Origin: Bacteroidota bacterium
GTDB lineage: Bacteria > Bacteroidota > Bacteroidia > Flavobacteriales > Flavobacteriaceae
Assembly (NCBI GenBank): GCA_027619415.1
Contig: JAQCFO010000003.1
Span: 45,596 to 109,595, forward strand
DNA length: 64,000 nucleotides
Direction of reading: 5' to 3'
How positions within the stretch are numbered: position 1 is the first letter of the stretch; the number at the start of each line of letters is the position of its first letter. Below, in pieces: positions 33,403 to 46,158 of the stretch. Below the pieces are notes generated by a model. That model had not been told where the DNA came from. It worked only from the letters and a program-made list of their open reading frames with translations, and did no database searches. A program made the position numbers and the translations under genes.

Positions 33403-33972
33403 ATGAAAAAATTATTATTATTACTTACACTAGGTTTTTTAAGTTCTTGTAACAACACTGCTGTTCAAAAAATGGTAGGAGCAATAACTCCAGAAGCTGA
33501 AGTCATTGAGGTTGAAGTTAATACTCCTGCTGGATATTTGTCTACAGCTGATGGCAGGTCTAATGTTAATGACGGGAATCCTGCTAATTTAGAGCTGTGG
33601 GATAACTATATCAGTGCTCATAATGCCAAAGACTTAGATGTTATTCGTGAAATGAATGCAGATTCAACACAACAGTTTGGTGGTTTCAAAATTTATGATG
33701 TAGATGGGTCTGTTATCGATGGATCTGATAGTCATATAGAACTATTAAGTGGATGGTTTGAAGCTGAAAATCCTAAATGGGATACATTCTTTTCTTATAC
33801 TATGAAAGTTGATGGCCAGATTGGTGAGTGGGTAATTTCAGGAGCTTCTGTTACAACAACTTTAGATGGTGAAGAAAAAACTAAATATAATTTGGCTGAT
33901 GTTTATATTGAGGATGGGAAAATAGGTGCTTTTTGGATTTATTCAAGAGCTGCCGTTCTTTCTGAAGAATAA
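33403..33972 (+). CDS. lipoprotein, NTF2-like
   Basis: Lipobox GFLSSC. Distant paralog of the frameshifted gene 27660..28159. Confidence 0.55.
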   Translation: MKKLLLLLTLGFLSSCNNTAVQKMVGAITPEAEVIEVEVNTPAGYLSTADGRSNVNDGNPANLELWDNYISAHNAKDLDVIREMNADSTQQFGGFKIYDVDGSVIDGSDSHIELLSGWFEAENPKWDTFFSYTMKVDGQIGEWVISGASVTTTLDGEEKTKYNLADVYIEDGKIGAFWIYSRAAVLSEE

Positions 33973-33994
33973 GCTTATTAAATAGATTAAAAAA

Positions 33995-34022
33995 AGCCCT
34001 GTCTAAAATTTTAGACAGGGCT
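33995..34022. terminator. bidirectional rho-independent terminator
   Basis: AGCCCTGTCTAAA / TTTAGACAGGGCT perfect 13-bp inverted repeat, flanked by an A run upstream and a T run downstream. Lies between convergent genes. Confidence 0.8.
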
Positions 34023-34052
34023 TTTTTTATTAGATTAATAAAACTAAATCGT

Positions 34053-34826
34053 TTAGCTTGATTTAAATGGCAAATAAGGACTTTTTATCCAGTTAAATAA
34101 AGAACTTAAAATTCCATAAAAGAAGCTATAAAAAGCTAATGCTACATAAAGTTGCGCTAAAATAATTGCTACTTGAACATATTCCCAACCAACTGCTAAT
34201 GCACCATCAAGGTTATAACCTGTTGCTTCAGATCCTGTAACGTCCCACGAAAAGAAGTCAGCAATAAATCCTCCAACAAATTCAAGTCCAAGCATTCCCA
34301 TAAAGGCTGCCATTGCATCCACTGGTAAGGCGTAAGAGTAAGCAAATCCATCAGTTAAATCAACGCCAATAGACATCCCATCAGAAGCTAGTACCCATCC
34401 GATAGTTGCACAAAAAGCGCCAAACAAAGCAACTAAAGCTGTAATGTGACCTAAAGCTTTAATGTGAGCAACGATAACATCTTTAAAAAAGAAATCTACC
34501 ATTCCACTTTTAGATGCAGCTAATGAATCCCCTGCAGATCTGATTACTTGAGCAATAGGAAAAGCAGCATAAATTAAAACCAACGTACAAAGCCCTGCAG
34601 ACAATTTCCCTAGTCCATCAGCTGCGTTTAAAGCATCCATACCTCCAGTAATAACTGAAATAAGCATTCCTACAAGTACAACTAATGCTCCAACTTTGAA
34701 TATTTTTCCTGTCCAGTCACTAACTGACCCTTCAGAGTTATCCATCATTTCGTTAAAGCAATTCTTTGGAAGTTTTTGGTTCACCATATTGGGGAAATCC
34801 AAAATTTGATCAATAATTTTATTCAT
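34053..34826 (-). CDS. multi-pass membrane protein of unknown function
   Basis: 257 aa, Ala/Gly-rich, with about 5-6 hydrophobic segments. I recognise no motif. Confidence 0.6.
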   Translation of the reverse strand: MNKIIDQILDFPNMVNQKLPKNCFNEMMDNSEGSVSDWTGKIFKVGALVVLVGMLISVITGGMDALNAADGLGKLSAGLCTLVLIYAAFPIAQVIRSAGDSLAASKSGMVDFFFKDVIVAHIKALGHITALVALFGAFCATIGWVLASDGMSIGVDLTDGFAYSYALPVDAMAAFMGMLGLEFVGGFIADFFSWDVTGSEATGYNLDGALAVGWEYVQVAIILAQLYVALAFYSFFYGILSSLFNWIKSPYLPFKSS

Positions 34827-35032: not shown

Positions 35033-35106
35033 GGTCCTATAGCTCAGTTGGTTAGAGTAGTTGACTCATAATCAATTGGTCCCAGGTTCGAGTCCTGGTG
35101 GGACCA
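35033..35106 (+). tRNA. tRNA with anticodon CAT, most likely lysidine-modified tRNA-Ile2 rather than elongator tRNA-Met
   Basis: Hand-folded cloverleaf: acceptor GGTCCTA/TGGGACC, D arm GCTC/GAGT, anticodon arm GTTGA-CTCATAA-TCAAT, T arm CCAGG-TTCGAGT-CCTGG, discriminator A. The G27-U43 wobble and TGGTC variable loop resemble E. coli ileX as I remember it. It lacks initiator features. Confidence 0.9.
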
Positions 35107-35111
35107 CCCTT

Positions 35112-35139
35112 AAAACCCTTCTTAATTGAGGGGTTTTTT
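35112..35139 (+). terminator. rho-independent terminator after the tRNA
   Basis: AAAACCC...GGGGTTTTTT hairpin with a T tract. Confidence 0.65.
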
Positions 35140-35600
35140 GTTTTTAGATGTTTAGCAACAACTTACTTAAAGGTATAAAAACTTGGCAACTATGTGGCAA
35201 CTGCAATTATTTCGTCAATAACTTTCTTGTTTCGTTAATAAATATTGTTTCAAAACACAAAATAAACCCTTAACTACGTTATATAATTAAATGGATCTAA
35301 ACTTGGCACATAGAATCCATTAAGACGTTAGAGAACCAAGATATTTTCTACAAAGAACCTTTTAGATTCCCAATAAGGTTCAACGTTGTAAACTCGCATA
35401 GAGTACACAAGTGGGTAAGTGTAGCAGTTTTTCCTGTGTCAGTATTAATAGACACCGATTGAATAGGTTTTCTGCCTTGATGTTGATGGAGGGTTCTTCA
35501 TATAAAAAGAATAGTATCTTTTTTAAATGAGGTGTGTCGTAGTTTAATTAGATAAAGTGCCCTAGCGGGCAGATGTTTACGTAAAGTAGTTTAAAATAGT

Positions 35601-35900
35601 ATGAATACAACAGGTAAAAAGTATGGAGGAAGAACTAAAGGAACTCCTAATAAATTAAGTAATGAAATTAAAGAAAGATTAGCCACCATTCTAAATGAAG
35701 CAATGGATAGTATTGATGTAAAAACATTAACAGTTTCTGAACGATTAAAGTTAATTCAGATTAGTGTTCAATATGTTATTCCAAGATTAAAACAGGTTGA
35801 AGATGTTACTGATGAGATGCCTACAAACTTTCAAATAGAAATAATAGATTCCTTGAGTAAATATTCAGATAAAGAATTGGATCAAGCTATTAAGGGTTAA
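35601..35900 (+). CDS. hypothetical protein (99 aa), phage/mobile-element flavour
   Basis: N-terminal GGRTKGTPNK basic motif, then a helical region. No homolog recognised. Confidence 0.5.
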   Translation: MNTTGKKYGGRTKGTPNKLSNEIKERLATILNEAMDSIDVKTLTVSERLKLIQISVQYVIPRLKQVEDVTDEMPTNFQIEIIDSLSKYSDKELDQAIKG

Positions 35901-36199
35901 TAGTCAATTAAAGGAGCAAGTATTTCAAATAATTTTTTCATAGTAACAATCAAGAACCTCCCCAACTATCTTGAAAAAAAATTCCAACGCCAAGTTCAGC
36001 CCACAAGTATAAAAATAAAATTATTACAAATATTATAATTGCTTTTTTCTTATTCACAAACTAAATATAATGTTTTTAAAAACACCCAATCCAAGAACTG
36101 CTGTAATACAAAGTTATAATCGTCCAGTACTTTATAAAAACCACATACTATTAAATGTTGCAGTTGTAGTTAGGTTTAGATAATGACTATATTTATATT

Positions 36200-36445
36200 A
36201 TGAGGAAATTTCTTCTTTTATTGGCAATTATTTTTGTGTTTGGATGTGATGGGTTAGTAAAAGATTGTGGTGAGATTTATGCAAAGTATTCAAATGATGG
36301 AGAATACTTTCTGGCAGTAAACCTTAGTAGTTCAAAATATAGTAAAGATGGTGAGCAAGGTGGAGAAATACTAGCTGACGCTGTAGTTACTAAATCAATA
36401 TACGATTCAGTAAATGTTGGAGATGATTACTGCTTTGAAAACTAA
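36200..36445 (+). CDS. small lipoprotein (81 aa)
   Basis: Lipobox IFVFGC. Paralog relic at 15648..15907. Confidence 0.6.
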   Translation: MRKFLLLLAIIFVFGCDGLVKDCGEIYAKYSNDGEYFLAVNLSSSKYSKDGEQGGEILADAVVTKSIYDSVNVGDDYCFEN

Positions 36446-36508
36446 TATCTTCTACTGTCAATTCAGCTACTTCTAATCCTCGTAAGTAGGTTAATAAGGT
36501 TTATATAA
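36445..36508 (+). repeat. cassette-end repeat copy R1
   Basis: ata tct tct act gtc aat tca gct act tct aat cct cgt aag TAG, plus tail gttaataaggtttatataa. Overlaps the stop of 36200..36445. Confidence 0.9.
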
Positions 36509-36516
36509 TTCTTATA

Positions 36517-36825
36517 TTAAGATTTCTTTATCCAATCTTCAATTGTTTTAAAAACTGAACATAAGCCATCTGCTTTTGTAGTTAAAGAATACTCAACTTT
36601 TGGAGGTATTTGTTGATATTGTTTTCTTGAAATAAGATTATCACCCTCTAAACTTTTTAATTGATCCGTTAAAACCTTTCTAGAAATATTTGGAATAGAT
36701 GATGCAAGTTGACCGAACCTTACAACCCCCCTGTTTATTAAGGTATTAATTATAATCAATTTCCACCTGCCTCCTAGCATTTCTGTAAAGGATACAACCG
36801 GACATATATCATTAGTTACTTTCAT
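36517..36825 (-). CDS. HxlR (DUF24) family transcriptional regulator
   Basis: CPVVSFTEMLGGRWKLIIINTL...PPKVEYSLT, with the conserved N-terminal Cys of redox-sensing members. Confidence 0.9.
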   Translation of the reverse strand: MKVTNDICPVVSFTEMLGGRWKLIIINTLINRGVVRFGQLASSIPNISRKVLTDQLKSLEGDNLISRKQYQQIPPKVEYSLTTKADGLCSVFKTIEDWIKKS

Positions 36826-36863
36826 AATACTGTTTTAGTAACCTGTAAGTTTCTAGAAAATTA

Positions 36864-36890
36864 AAGTTACTTAAAGGTAACAAGTTACTT
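36864..36890. promoter_or_regulatory. candidate HxlR operator: nested GTTAC/GTAAC palindromes in the divergent intergenic region
   Basis: GTTAC(36866)-N6-GTAAC(36877) and GTAAC(36877)-N2-GTTAC(36884). AAGTTACTT is repeated at 36864 and 36882. Extra half-sites at 36838 and 36815. Confidence 0.4.
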
Positions 36891-36934
36891 TATATAACCA
36901 AACGTAGTAATATTGCTTGAACAAAAAAATAAAT

Positions 36935-37498
36935 ATGAAAACAAAAACTTTATTATCACTACTTCTACTTACTCTATCATCACTTTCCTTTGCACAGTCT
37001 GAATTTAATTTAGAGTCAAGCGAAATACAATGGAAAGGCACAAAAATCACAAATCAATCTCATACCGGGACTCTAAAATTTAAAAAAGCAGATATAAAAA
37101 TTAAAAACAAATACGATGTTTCAGGTGAATTTAAAGTTGATATGAGTAGTTTAAAAAATGATGATTTATCAGGTGAATGGAAACAAAAAATTGAGGGTCA
37201 TTTAAAATCAGATGATTTTTTCTCTGTTGAAAAACATCAAGAAGCAACTTTAGTCATAAAAAAAGTAACTTCTAAAAAGAATAATTCATATGAACTAACA
37301 GGGGATTTAACAATTAAAAGCATTACCCATCCTGTTAATTTTGTTTTGTTAGTTTTTAACGACAGAATTGAAAGTAAATTAACTTTTAATAGGTCAAAAT
37401 ATGACATTCGATTTGCTTCAGGCAGCTTTTTTGAAAATTTAGGTGATAACTTGATAAATGATGAAATTAATCTAGAAATAATATTAAATAAAATATAA
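36935..37498 (+). CDS. YceI-like periplasmic protein (second copy)
   Basis: Signal peptide and HLKSDDFFSV. I prefer ATG 36935 to the TTG at 36917 used in the track. Confidence 0.85.
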   Translation: MKTKTLLSLLLLTLSSLSFAQSEFNLESSEIQWKGTKITNQSHTGTLKFKKADIKIKNKYDVSGEFKVDMSSLKNDDLSGEWKQKIEGHLKSDDFFSVEKHQEATLVIKKVTSKKNNSYELTGDLTIKSITHPVNFVLLVFNDRIESKLTFNRSKYDIRFASGSFFENLGDNLINDEINLEIILNKI

Positions 37499-37503
37499 TA
37501 AAT

Positions 37504-37596
37504 ATGATTTACAAAAAACAAGACCGTCCAAAGTGTGGATGCGGAAATACACTAGACCCAAATGGATATTGTGATGGCTCACACTTAAACAATTAA
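37504..37596 (+). CDS. micro-ORF 1: 30-aa CDGSH-like Cys3His knuckle peptide
   Basis: MIYKKQDRPKCGCGNTLDPNGYCDGSHLNN. Starts 5 nt after the YceI stop. Not in the track (under 60 aa). Confidence 0.45.
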   Translation: MIYKKQDRPKCGCGNTLDPNGYCDGSHLNN

Positions 37597-37634
37597 AATA
37601 CCACCCTCCTATGGAGATCTTTTATATTAATGGC

Positions 37635-37684
37635 ATATCCATAGCTGTCAATTCAGCAACTTCCAAACCACGTAAGTAGGCTAA
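37635..37684 (+). repeat. cassette-end repeat copy R2
   Basis: ata tcc ata gct gtc aat tca gca act tcc aaa cca cgt aag TAG gctaa. Preceded by a 7-bp inverted repeat CTATGGA(37609)/TCCATAG(37638). Confidence 0.9.
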
Positions 37685-37760
37685 AATAGAGTGTCAAATT
37701 TTTTTAATCTAGTTTCATTCTAAAGTGTCTTAATATTATATTTACATTAAAATCATACTT

Positions 37761-37847
37761 ATGTCAAATAAACCTAAATGTGGATGTGGAAATACTCAAA
37801 ATCCTGATGGATTTTGTGATGGTTCTCACAACAACCAAGAAGATTAG
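37761..37847 (+). CDS. micro-ORF 2: 28-aa CDGSH-like Cys3His knuckle peptide
   Basis: MSNKPKCGCGNTQNPDGFCDGSHNNQED. Paralog of micro-ORF 1. Confidence 0.45.
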   Translation: MSNKPKCGCGNTQNPDGFCDGSHNNQED

Positions 37848-37862
37848 ATAAAAAGCATTAAA

Positions 37863-37922
37863 GCTGTACTATACAACAACATAGTTTTCTATAAAGTATG
37901 TAAATTAATAAGGTTTAGATAA
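37863..37922 (+). repeat. degenerate cassette-end repeat copy R4
   Basis: The head gctgta.. aligns weakly. The tail at 37896-37922 is 23/27 identical to the R1 tail at 36482-36508. Confidence 0.55.
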
Positions 37923-37985
37923 AGCTATTAATAGTTAATTGCCTAATAAGATTTTTTTTAATTCAGGAATACTTAAATTCGATGG

Positions 37986-38360
37986 GTGAATAAATTAAAT
38001 AGTCTTTTAAAAAACAAATGTCCTAAATGTGGAAATGGTGATTTTTTTATTAATAGAAATCCATACTTAAATATTTTATTTCACAAAGGAAATCATCATA
38101 AAAATTGTTCTTCTTGTAAATTGAAATACGAATTAGAACCAGGCTTTTTTTACGGAGCGATGTATGTTAGTTATGCTTTAGCTATTGGCTTAGGATGTTT
38201 TCTTTTAATTCTATTTATAGGCATTCTAGGTAAAGAAGACGTTTCAATTCTAATTGCCATAATAGGTTTTAGTGTTTTGATTTTTTCGCCAATAAACTAT
38301 TACTTATCAAGATTGCTGTGGATTAATATATTTATTGATAAAAACAACCCTAAACCATAG
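37986..38360 (+). CDS. DUF983 family membrane protein
   Basis: CPKCGNGDFF...CSSCKLKYELEPGFFYGAMY followed by two TM helices. GTG start. Confidence 0.8.
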   Translation: MNKLNSLLKNKCPKCGNGDFFINRNPYLNILFHKGNHHKNCSSCKLKYELEPGFFYGAMYVSYALAIGLGCFLLILFIGILGKEDVSILIAIIGFSVLIFSPINYYLSRLLWINIFIDKNNPKP

Positions 38361-38362
38361 AC

Positions 38363-38413
38363 ATCTCTTCTACAGTCAATTCAGCAACTTCAAACCCTCG
38401 TAAGTAGGTTAAA
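38363..38413 (+). repeat. cassette-end repeat copy R3
   Basis: atc tct tct aca gtc aat tca gca act tca aac cct cgt aag TAG gttaaa. Begins 3 nt after the DUF983 stop. Confidence 0.9.
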
Positions 38414-38501
38414 CTCACGTTTAAATTGAGTGCCCCATAGCTTTTTGTAGCTTGGTAAATGACCCTGTTCTTTTAAAGGCTTCTATTGCAATAAGTTCTC
38501 T

Positions 38502-45226: not shown

Positions 45227-46158
45227 AAAACTTTATAATAATCCTGATGCTGCTATCATTATCCCAAATTCACTGTCAAATAATAACAGAAAAGTTGGTG
45301 GAAAAACACCTGGCTACTCTTTCTGATGACTTAATGGAGGGCAGAAGAATAGGAACAACAGGGATTGAAAAAGCTGCTCAATATATTGAATCTGAATTTA
45401 TTCGGATTGGGCTAAGTAAATTTAAACCTCTAAAATCATATCGACAAGAATTTAAACACAAAGAAATACATCTTAGCAATCTAATTGGTGTTTTAAAGGG
45501 GAAAAGCAAAGCAGATGAATATGTTGTTATTTCTGCCCATTATGATCATCTTGGGATAAGTTCAAGCAAAGACGACTTTAATGGTGACCTTGTTTTTAAC
45601 GGGGCTAATGATAATGCTTCTGGAGTGAGCGCTGTTCTTGCTTTAGCGGAACATTACAAGGCTCTTGATGTCAATGAAAGAAGCATTTTGTTTGTAGCTT
45701 TTACAGCTGAAGAAGCTGGGTTACTCGGGTCTAGTTATTTCGGAAAACAAATCAATTCAAAAAATATTATTGCTGGAATTAATGTAGAAATGATTGGTAA
45801 AGAATCCCCCTTTGGTCCAAAAACAGCATGGCTAACAGGTTTTGATCGTTCAGATTTCGGAAAAATTGTTCAAAAAAATCTCATCAACTCTAACTACAGT
45901 CTTTATCCGGATCCTTATAAAGATTTTCGTTTGTTTTTTAGATCTGATAATGCCTCTTTAGCGAGGCTTGGGGTGCCAGCACACACTTTTTCAACAAGCC
46001 CAATGGACAAAGACCTTGACTATCATAAGGTTTCTGATGAAATCAATACGCTTGATCTTTTTACTGTTTCAGAAACCATTAAAGCTATAGCTATGGGAAT
46101 TCTTTCTATTATTAAGGGAGATGATACGCCTACGCGAGTTATAATGCAAAAAGATTAA
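45223..46158 (+). CDS. M28 family metallopeptidase
   Basis: HYDHLG, NDNASGVSAVLALAE and FTAEEAGLLGS motifs, plus a signal peptide. Confidence 0.85.
   Translation: MKNFIIILMLLSLSQIHCQIITEKLVEKHLATLSDDLMEGRRIGTTGIEKAAQYIESEFIRIGLSKFKPLKSYRQEFKHKEIHLSNLIGVLKGKSKADEYVVISAHYDHLGISSSKDDFNGDLVFNGANDNASGVSAVLALAEHYKALDVNERSILFVAFTAEEAGLLGSSYFGKQINSKNIIAGINVEMIGKESPFGPKTAWLTGFDRSDFGKIVQKNLINSNYSLYPDPYKDFRLFFRSDNASLARLGVPAHTFSTSPMDKDLDYHKVSDEINTLDLFTVSETIKAIAMGILSIIKGDDTPTRVIMQKD

Follow-up and report, generated by a model that had tools for sequence, protein, structure and literature searches.

The 64,000-nucleotide (nt) stretch analysed here (the window; positions 45,596 to 109,595 of contig JAQCFO010000003.1, assembly GCA_027619415.1, a member of the Flavobacteriaceae) carries beside a tRNA(CAU) gene a row of small genes separated by copies of one 75-nt direct repeat. 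The repeat corresponds to the last ~19 codons of a tyrosine integrase gene of family PF00589, which encode the region of the catalytic tyrosine and the C-terminal tail, and in related genomes copies of it divide arrays of mostly single-gene cassettes that begin at the 3' end of intact integrases and vary at the repeats. The reading that we favour, with a probability of roughly 0.6, is that these arrays form an integron-like platform for cassettes, which recombines them at a site in the last codons of its own integrase gene. The window itself holds a dead array, made up of tRNA(CAU), an island-associated open reading frame (ORF99), four cassettes, five site copies (two strongly decayed and one truncated) and a frameshifted integrase stub, and this fossil points to a widespread, apparently undescribed cassette system of marine Flavobacteriia.

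By scanning the window with the pattern GTCAATTCAGCNACTTCNAANCCNCGTAAGTAG, three matches without mismatch were obtained on the plus strand, at 36457-36489, 37647-37679 and 38375-38407 (copies R1, R2 and R3), and none of 100 dinucleotide-preserving shuffles of the window matched. The same repeat family was recovered by a repeat search, and a profile of the site (positions -18 to +60 around the catalytic-tyrosine codon) finds just these three copies, clustered in the whole 64 kb. An initial annotation of this DNA had placed the copies correctly and had rightly taken them for the reiterated 3' end of a coding gene; its strand, its frame and the peptide that it deduced, VNSATS(N/K)PRK*, were wrong. 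The four variable sites of the repeat are spaced every third base, and this period-3 variation cannot separate the plus frame from the minus frame because the wobble positions of both are the same bases. The coding strand of the repeats is in fact the minus strand. Six-frame translation of each copy on this strand gives ..LTYLRG(L/F)EVAELT..*; the 'TAG' common to the plus strands merely complements ..C TA.. where the Thr and Tyr codons meet, and VNSATS(N/K)PRK* results from reading YLRGLEVAELT in antisense. The 75-nt site starts 18 nt ahead of the codon for the catalytic tyrosine and ends with the integrase stop codon. The initial statement that the window contains no integrase is incorrect in one respect, since the repeat itself is an integrase 3' end and a remnant of the gene lies at 38350-~38490.

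One genome per species was then scanned with a codon-degenerate pattern for YLRGLE(I/V)AEL, which yielded 82 loci (numbered with the prefix L below), nearly all in marine Flavobacteriaceae and other metagenome-assembled genomes (MAGs) of Bacteroidota (Polaribacter, Formosa, Ulvibacter, Kordia), with one to three loci per assembly. About 14 of the matches terminate intact integrase ORFs of ~345-360 amino acids, and ~74 are relics, in which the open frame reaches back fewer than 60 codons. Almost all 74 read YLRGLE(I/V)AELKEEDMPMV with a stop 18 codons past the tyrosine; their conservation climbs from about -18 nt, runs on with a period-3 pattern and ends sharply at the integrase stop. Counted with the site profile at E < 1e-3, the 82 loci hold 222 site copies, the densest 8-kb block, on a Polaribacter chromosome, having 13, with two more in the adjoining block. 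The integrases of the relatives are tyrosine recombinases of PF00589, a family whose catalytic domain is marked by the residues Arg..His-x-x-Arg..His/Trp..Tyr (E = 1e-11 to 1e-12 over residues 179-331 of 347, the domain ending at the tyrosine) and match PHROG 1 'integrase' at 1.5e-21; the window remnant and the relics retain ..GHS..LTY(LRG), and the homologs carry FRH(S/T)G upstream. The family comprises 3120 clusters at E <= 1e-30, with no name beyond 'site-specific integrase'. The degenerate site pattern had no match in the IMG/VR viral contigs, and in phage and plasmid collections tblastn with an intact integrase found no close relative, only integrases ~25% identical to it (best identity 27%). 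Intact integrases with the same tail were also seen in MAGs labelled Nitrospirae, Rokubacteria, Porticoccaceae and Rhodobacteraceae (L031, L065, L040 and L082), that of L031 using GC-rich codons for the same tail peptide; either the family extends past Bacteroidota or these bins are contaminated.

Within the arrays, adjacent copies share orientation in 137 of 139 pairs and are spaced at a median of 715 nt (10-90% range 264-1490 nt). Each interval holds about one gene: over 134 intervals the main ORF occupies a median of 82% of the interval, and in 108 of them (81%) the largest ORF lies on the strand opposite the integrase. The 116 non-redundant cassette proteins match 71 Pfam families, almost all singletons, which include domains of unknown function, type IX secretion system sorting domains, outer-membrane beta-barrels, TonB_C, sulfatase and the beta-lactamase fold; the cassettes mostly encode secreted, outer-membrane and unknown proteins, and 56% of the cassette proteins start with MK. 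The arrays are polar with respect to the integrase. Around 17 intact integrases, 17 further copies lie in 61 kb downstream of the 3' end, versus 0 in 50 kb upstream; four integrases (L003, L036, L030 and L068) have no array at all.

The cassettes also share a feature at their edges. The Bacteroidetes -7 box TAnnTTTG stands on the cassette-gene strand after 55 of 185 copies, 37 times at 10-19 nt from the site, versus 4 occurrences on the other strand and 6.9% of random windows, and an ATG follows the box at a median of 10 nt. It appears that such cassettes arrive with a promoter, from which transcription would proceed in antisense through to the next site or to the tail of the integrase. At eleven loci (for example L077 3540-3572), a -7 box and an opposite-strand start codon abut the integrase-proximal edge of the site. 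The site copies vary in part as coding sequence does: a stop codon is kept in 97 of 136 distinct relic tails, 31 distinct DNA sequences encode exactly AELKEEDMPMV*, and the differences among tails number 222, 130 and 313 at the first, second and third codon positions.

Comparison of related loci provides evidence of exchange at the sites. Where two loci are at least 93% identical, site copies contain 69 of the 130 internal homology endpoints and amount to ~3.5-7% of the sequence. L024 and the pair L064 and L044 share 2.9 kb at 100% identity, yet they differ by whole cassettes, and one cassette (98% identical) comes after the intact integrase in L024 but in L044 after a bare relic. Thirteen cassette families recur in at least two assemblies, one of them being integrase-proximal in L014 and L072 and internal in L001. 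Similarly, L100 and L099 are 99.9% identical over the integrase, a 2.6-kb cassette and the next site, and diverge 3 nt past the stop of that site. In L100 (3853-5374) the array stops after the second site and is followed by a terminator, an opposite-strand tRNA and cas1-cas2, where L099 has more cassettes.

The point of exchange can be narrowed further. In pairs of copies that share only the downstream flank, mismatch is at background up to +18 and low from about +21, and in pairs that share only the upstream flank the pattern is reversed. These patterns place the exchange zone at about +18 to +24, in the codons Glu-(Ile/Val)-Ala-Glu; together with the homology endpoints and the population variants, they confine exchange to the final ~80 nt of the integrase gene. 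Some 'half copies' hold +19 to +57 only, and their boundary agrees with this zone.

Variation in natural populations is seen with P0055, one exact integrase protein found on ten contigs from different samples, with integrase DNA that differs at 0-8 of 1044 nt. Behind this integrase (int) stand the cassette orders int-A-B-C-F-G-H-I, int-A-B-C, int-A-B-D-E, int-B-D-E-K, int-B-C, int-B and int-A'-J. Every junction in these arrays is a site copy, and all cassette genes are on the opposite strand. The initial claim that the repeats mark module boundaries is borne out. The check proposed with it, whether modules are gained or lost at exactly those boundaries, is positive in related genomes, where reassortment at the repeats is seen as well; the window locus has the fixed arrangement that the initial annotation had named as evidence against its reading. 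In short, arrays with an integrase are variable, whereas the integrase-less array of the window is static.

The arrays of the relatives sit in conventional tRNA-integrating islands. The order is full tRNA, terminator, TGGCA-type repeats, an ORF99-like gene, the cassette array, the integrase (reading toward the tRNA) and a partial tRNA. Such a partial tRNA copy adjoins the 5' end of nearly every intact integrase (ten loci), and the tRNA types are Met/Ile2-CAU, initiator Met, Arg-TCT, His, Asn and the 5' part of Ala. No tRNA fragment was found between the cassettes of any array, and on this ground serial integration at the tRNA site was rejected as the source of the arrays. An Islander-type tRNA island is defined by a full tDNA, a displaced tDNA fragment and an integrase. 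In the window the full tRNA is present, the integrase is a stub, and a search for a second copy of the tRNA(CAU) 3' end, as a conventional att repeat would provide, found none within 3 mismatches. Mimicry of the tRNA by the site (D-arm or anticodon-arm look-alikes such as TAGCTGA) was likewise rejected, local alignment of the site of each integrase to its own tRNA region giving z of -1.3 to +1.8 against shuffles. In the tRNA-like sequence by the integrase of L024 (5430-5470) and L068 (~1630-1670), which represent two tRNA types (CAU and His), a common 21-25-nt block TAAGCG(A/T)AGCG(C/T)GTCGAAGAC lies between the D-arm-like TAGCTCAGTTG.TTAG and the anticodon arm.

The features of the window locus are as follows, with the basis of each in brackets.

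35033..35108, plus strand: complete tRNA(CAU) (ARAGORN; Rfam tRNA, 71.6 bits).
35150..35310: T(T/A)GCAAC / CTTGGCA motifs repeated ~11 nt apart, just past the tRNA terminator (sequence reading; repeat family D16).
35601..35900, plus strand: ORF99, island-associated, at the far end of arrays in relatives (tblastn).
36150..36190, minus strand: R0, degenerate site copy (flank alignment with R1, L005, L047 and L064; blank in the profile).
36200..36445, plus strand: cassette 1, an 81-amino-acid lipoprotein-like gene (ORF list; no Pfam match).
36432..36506, minus strand: R1, site copy, T of the Tyr codon at 36488, reading LTYLRGLEVAELTVEDI (profile E = 1.5e-14, positions 11-64).
36517..37596: cassette 2, with an HxlR regulator at 36517-36825 (minus), YceI at 36917-37498 (plus) and a 30-amino-acid CDGSH-like ORF at 37504-37596 (plus) (PF01638, PF04264, ORF list).
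37622..37696, minus strand: R2, site copy, T of the Tyr codon at 37678, reading AYLRGLEVAELTAMDMPLI and then a stop (profile E = 6.7e-14).
37762..37848, plus strand: cassette 3, a 29-amino-acid CDGSH-like ORF, paralog of 37504-37596 (repeat family D2, tblastn, shared flank).
37863..37925, minus strand: R4, degenerate site copy with the flank TTAATAAGGTTTAGATAA retained and the core decayed (alignment; blank in the profile).
37986..38360, plus strand: cassette 4, a DUF983 membrane protein (PF06170), its last codons overlapping the end of R3 in antisense.
38350..38424, minus strand: R3, site copy, T of the Tyr codon at 38406, reading NVSLTYLRGFEVAELTVEEMSMV and then a stop (profile E = 1.5e-17, positions 2-75).
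38425..~38490, minus strand: integrase pseudogene remnant ..AIEAFKRTGSFTKLQKAMGHSI, frameshifted relative to R3 (six-frame translation, homology).

At the integrase end, R3 is the terminal part of the pseudogene, of which ~45 last codons are left in the window, frameshifted; the upstream ~290 codons are gone. The remnant aligns with the intact integrases of relatives, and the AIEAFKRTGSFTKLQKAMGHSI peptide has 17 metagenome protein matches at 56-85% identity, all short, two of them with PF00589 and one named integrase; the consensus of these 17 C-termini is ..LYSFRHTGAIEIFKRTGSLTKLQKAMGHSSLNVSLTYLRGLEVAELTVEDMPMV*. Site decay grows with distance from this stub. Homology of R1 stops at +45 and its stop codon is lost, which shows that R1 is decayed, and R0 and R4 are nearly gone; R0 retains only the flank and promoter-like part GGTTTAGATAAT..TATATTTA, directly before the start of the lipoprotein gene. 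The degenerate copy at 37863-37922 and the split-copy tail at 36163-36186 proposed initially are upheld only in part, in that both align with the TTAATAAGGTTTAGATAA flank of R1, L005, L047 and L064; the site profile detects neither. The gene content described initially, a lipoprotein-like ORF, HxlR, YceI and two paralogous mini-ORFs followed by DUF983, was confirmed. The locus was recovered on 14 metagenome contigs of the window's own species, from at least 8 samples, at least 99.4% identical and with one module order, and no strain variation was found among these 14. The window array is therefore regarded as a fossil, being without a working integrase and identical in all 14 contigs. Seven of the 14 start or stop inside the array or by the tRNA (window ~35628, 36226, 36355, 36618, 37490 and 37810), some of them beside repeat copies; these ends hint at branching of the assembly graph, and all spanning contigs keep one order.

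At the tRNA end, tRNA(CAU) is the sole tRNA of the window by ARAGORN and Rfam, and no other Rfam family is above threshold in the window. Direct repeats of TGGCA, similar to those at 35150-35310, adjoin integrase starts and partial tRNAs in L003, L024 and L028, and the repeats at 35150-35310 are candidate arm-type binding sites at the left end of a tRNA-integrating island. Homologs of ORF99 stand beside site copies or integrases at nine loci (tblastn); ORF99 has no Pfam or NCBIfam match, and its PHROG matches are weak and to families of unknown function. Cassette 3 recurs beside a site copy in L070 (tblastn, shared flank). The ORFs at 37504-37596 and 37762-37848, in neighbouring cassettes, are 29-30 amino acids long and resemble CDGSH-type iron-sulfur mini-proteins in their motif CGCGN..P.G.CDGSH, and the N-terminus of DUF983 (38022-38038) has a CPKCGNG-coding repeat in common with them (families D2 and D7). 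Outside the array, a 42-nt inverted repeat with a perfect centre (33967-34050, 79% complementary) lies between the convergent genes 33403-33972 and 34053-34826 and is probably a bidirectional terminator, unrelated to the cassettes.

Based on the results presented above, the mechanism of the favoured cassette platform may be outlined. In its living form, the system would be a tRNA-integrating island with one integrase gene. A cassette would be a small circle that joins a single gene, in many cases under a Bacteroidetes-type promoter of its own, to one site copy, and cassettes would insert at, and excise from, the site in the last codons of the integrase. On insertion, the integrase would retain its left half of the site and gain the right half of the cassette as its new last ~11 codons (about AELKEEDMPMV*), and the old right half would then follow the cassette, one place further down the array. 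Any right half might in time end the integrase, and unfit copies would inactivate the enzyme there. The open frame, the stop and the codon-like substitutions of the relics would thus follow from the need for each site copy to complete the integrase frame. For the full proposal, namely that marine Flavobacteriia, and perhaps other Bacteroidota, possess an integron analog of independent origin in which a non-IntI integrase uses its own last ~19 codons as insertion site, cassettes carry spare tails and the C-terminus is rewritten at each capture, we consider the odds to be even.

Several observations weigh against a platform of this kind. In P0055, the integrase genes of int-B and int-A-B differ only at -22, +2, +6, +8 and +32, so that the left half is included, and a derivation of int-B from int-A-B by one crossover between the sites seen was rejected, as the sequences do not fit. 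Gene conversion or homologous recombination, acting on the 75-nt repeats or on integrase alleles, must play a part as well and might even be enough. The coding constraint is partial, the stop being lost in 39 of 136 relic tails and premature stops being present in 19, and the half copies have no recognisable left half. No clear dyad-symmetric core was found in the site. The tRNA att and the integrase-tail site have no significant similarity, so that one enzyme would need two specificities. Finally, the case for the integrase acting on the site is drawn from comparison of sequences. By eye, a 6-bp CTAYTT..AARTAG stem and a 9-7-9 arrangement around +18 to +24 can be seen in the site as weak features, to which no claim is attached.

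The alternative that survives best, although we regard it as unlikely, is that the repeats are kept for another reason, as a promoter or terminator module or as a source of 3' untranslated region antisense to the integrase mRNA, and that the shuffling is due to ordinary homologous recombination or gene conversion with no part for the integrase. The TAnnTTTG box that abuts the site on the cassette-gene strand fits such a role, the divergence patch from -22 to +32 in otherwise identical P0055 integrases resembles a conversion tract, and the repeats, at 85-100% mutual identity, are sufficient for RecA-mediated exchange. However, this explanation does not account for the repeat being the integrase's own tail and for arrays always starting at the integrase 3' end, nor for the retained reading frame and stop. 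Exchange clusters near +18 to +24 rather than spreading over the repeat, and homologous recombination can delete cassettes between repeats but would not readily insert new ones. In addition, the difference between the static array without an integrase and the variable arrays with one is not expected from it.

Somewhat less probable still is that the arrays are graveyards, in which whole integrase-bearing elements integrated serially, at the tRNA or in the manner of Mx8 with attP inside the integrase gene, and later lost their integrases, leaving 3' stubs as passive debris. In agreement with this, integrase remnants vary in length (16-37 open codons at seven loci and in the window's R3), the islands, given their partial tRNA copies, are of the classical tRNA type, and tandem accretion is well known for tycheposons. 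On the other hand, most of the 74 relics share a left boundary near -18 of a 1-kb gene, where random deletion predicts otherwise, and the intervals, at a median of 715 nt and with mostly one opposite-strand gene, are too small to have ever held an integrase. Debris of elements integrated at the tRNA would be expected to include partial tRNAs between cassettes, and there are none; Mx8-like integration of whole elements would leave a relic upstream of each integrase, and copies lie downstream only. Moreover, in P0055 an identical integrase is followed by different first cassettes, and single-cassette differences without an integrase remnant are already seen. Finally, a plus-strand gene tail ending in VNSATS(N/K)PRK* or a genome-wide intergenic repeat of the repetitive extragenic palindromic (REP) or miniature inverted-repeat transposable element (MITE) type, although period-3 variation is compatible with the plus frame and its shared TAG, is most improbable, because the plus frame is open for 17-35 codons only and no protein with that terminus was found, because the minus frame runs on into full-length PF00589 integrases in relatives, and because a single cluster of three copies in the 64 kb, one to three loci in each sampled genome, the absence of a significant fold and the identity of the repeat as an integrase 3' end do not suit REP or MITE elements, which are dispersed genome-wide in many copies, have no relation to gene ends and are often palindromic.

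To our knowledge, no well-established system other than the integron collects single-gene cassettes and rearranges them. If the integron-like platform is real, a second and unrelated one would imply that this solution evolved more than once, and it would explain in concrete terms how part of the flexible genome arises in Flavobacteriia, which are central to the turnover of polysaccharides in the sea. A recombination site in the recombinase's own coding end would be an unusual design, in which non-coding DNA evolves in a gene-like manner and which could link cassette capture to changes in the enzyme tail. In practice, the 75-nt site is a simple marker for such arrays in metagenomes, and integrase plus site could become a compact tool for recombination in Bacteroidota, whose genetic engineering is difficult. 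No published description of such a system was found in the literature, the coverage of which was incomplete, so that a prior description is possible.

Compared with known systems, the arrays show partial likeness to several. The pdif modules of Acinetobacter are bounded by 28-bp XerC/D sites in alternating orientation that are used by host Xer proteins. They too are small gene modules bounded by tyrosine-recombinase sites and shuffling between replicons, but the repeats here are direct and derive from the coding end of a dedicated integrase. In composite islands of the staphylococcal cassette chromosome mec (SCCmec) type at rlmH and in ICESt and cis-mobilizable elements (CIME) at fda, tandem modules are separated by direct repeats of the last nucleotides of the target gene, and modules without a recombinase are mobilised in trans. 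Tandem modules and direct repeats that copy a gene's 3' end are thus common to both; there, however, the target is a host housekeeping gene, whereas here it is the recombinase itself, and each module here consists of one gene and measures 0.3-1.5 kb, with as many as 13 in 8 kb.

Tycheposons use a tyrosine recombinase, form islands at tRNA genes that include Met-CAU, Arg-TCT and Ala-GGC, carry cargo and accumulate degraded elements (bioRxiv 10.1101/2020.12.28.424599). All of this, in marine streamlined genomes, resembles the islands described here. Their modules, in contrast, are several kb long, contain replication genes and are separated by partial tRNA copies, whereas in the present arrays no tRNA fragments occur and the repeats are integrase tails, which is not the make-up of a tycheposon-like accretion island. 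A recombination site inside the integrase ORF is itself known. In Mx8 IntP the site lies within the coding sequence and recombination alters the 3' end (PMC6070905; PMC4383910, citing Tojo 1996), and in SSV-type archaeal integrases recombination at such a site splits the gene (PMC7253208). In both cases a whole element integrates at a tRNA attB, and the change or split of the integrase gene is a side effect. Here the putative partner sites are more copies of the integrase's own tail, which form arrays of integrase-less cassettes, and a replaced tail would retain its amino-acid sequence; furthermore, these islands have their tRNA att elsewhere, on the 5' side of the integrase.

The closest likeness is to integrons. 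In both, a tyrosine recombinase gene heads an array of small, mostly single-gene, co-oriented cassettes separated by site copies, the cassette content is diverse and mostly of unknown function, and cassettes are present, absent or reassorted between close relatives. A co-oriented single-gene array beside an integrase, varying by whole cassettes, is what the relatives display; the window has four cassettes and is invariant. Here, insertion would take place inside the integrase ORF instead of at an upstream attI, the integrase gene runs toward the array and the cassette genes converge on it, many cassettes have their own promoter box, and the platform stands in a tRNA-integrating island. The attC sites of integrons are imperfect palindromes that fold as single-stranded DNA hairpins, with structure conserved rather than sequence. 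The initial suggestion of attC-like sites was not supported, ten single-stranded folds of site copies (both strands) giving z of -0.65 to +1.15 against shuffles; the sites are sequence-conserved integrase 3' ends of 75 nt. Integron integrases (IntI) form a subfamily with an extra domain; the enzyme here scores 20.0 and 25.6 bits against NCBIfam TIGR02249, for which the cut-off is 265, and its domain is generic PF00589 only. The system appears to work like an integron, but it does so with an integrase that is not IntI and with sites that are not attC.

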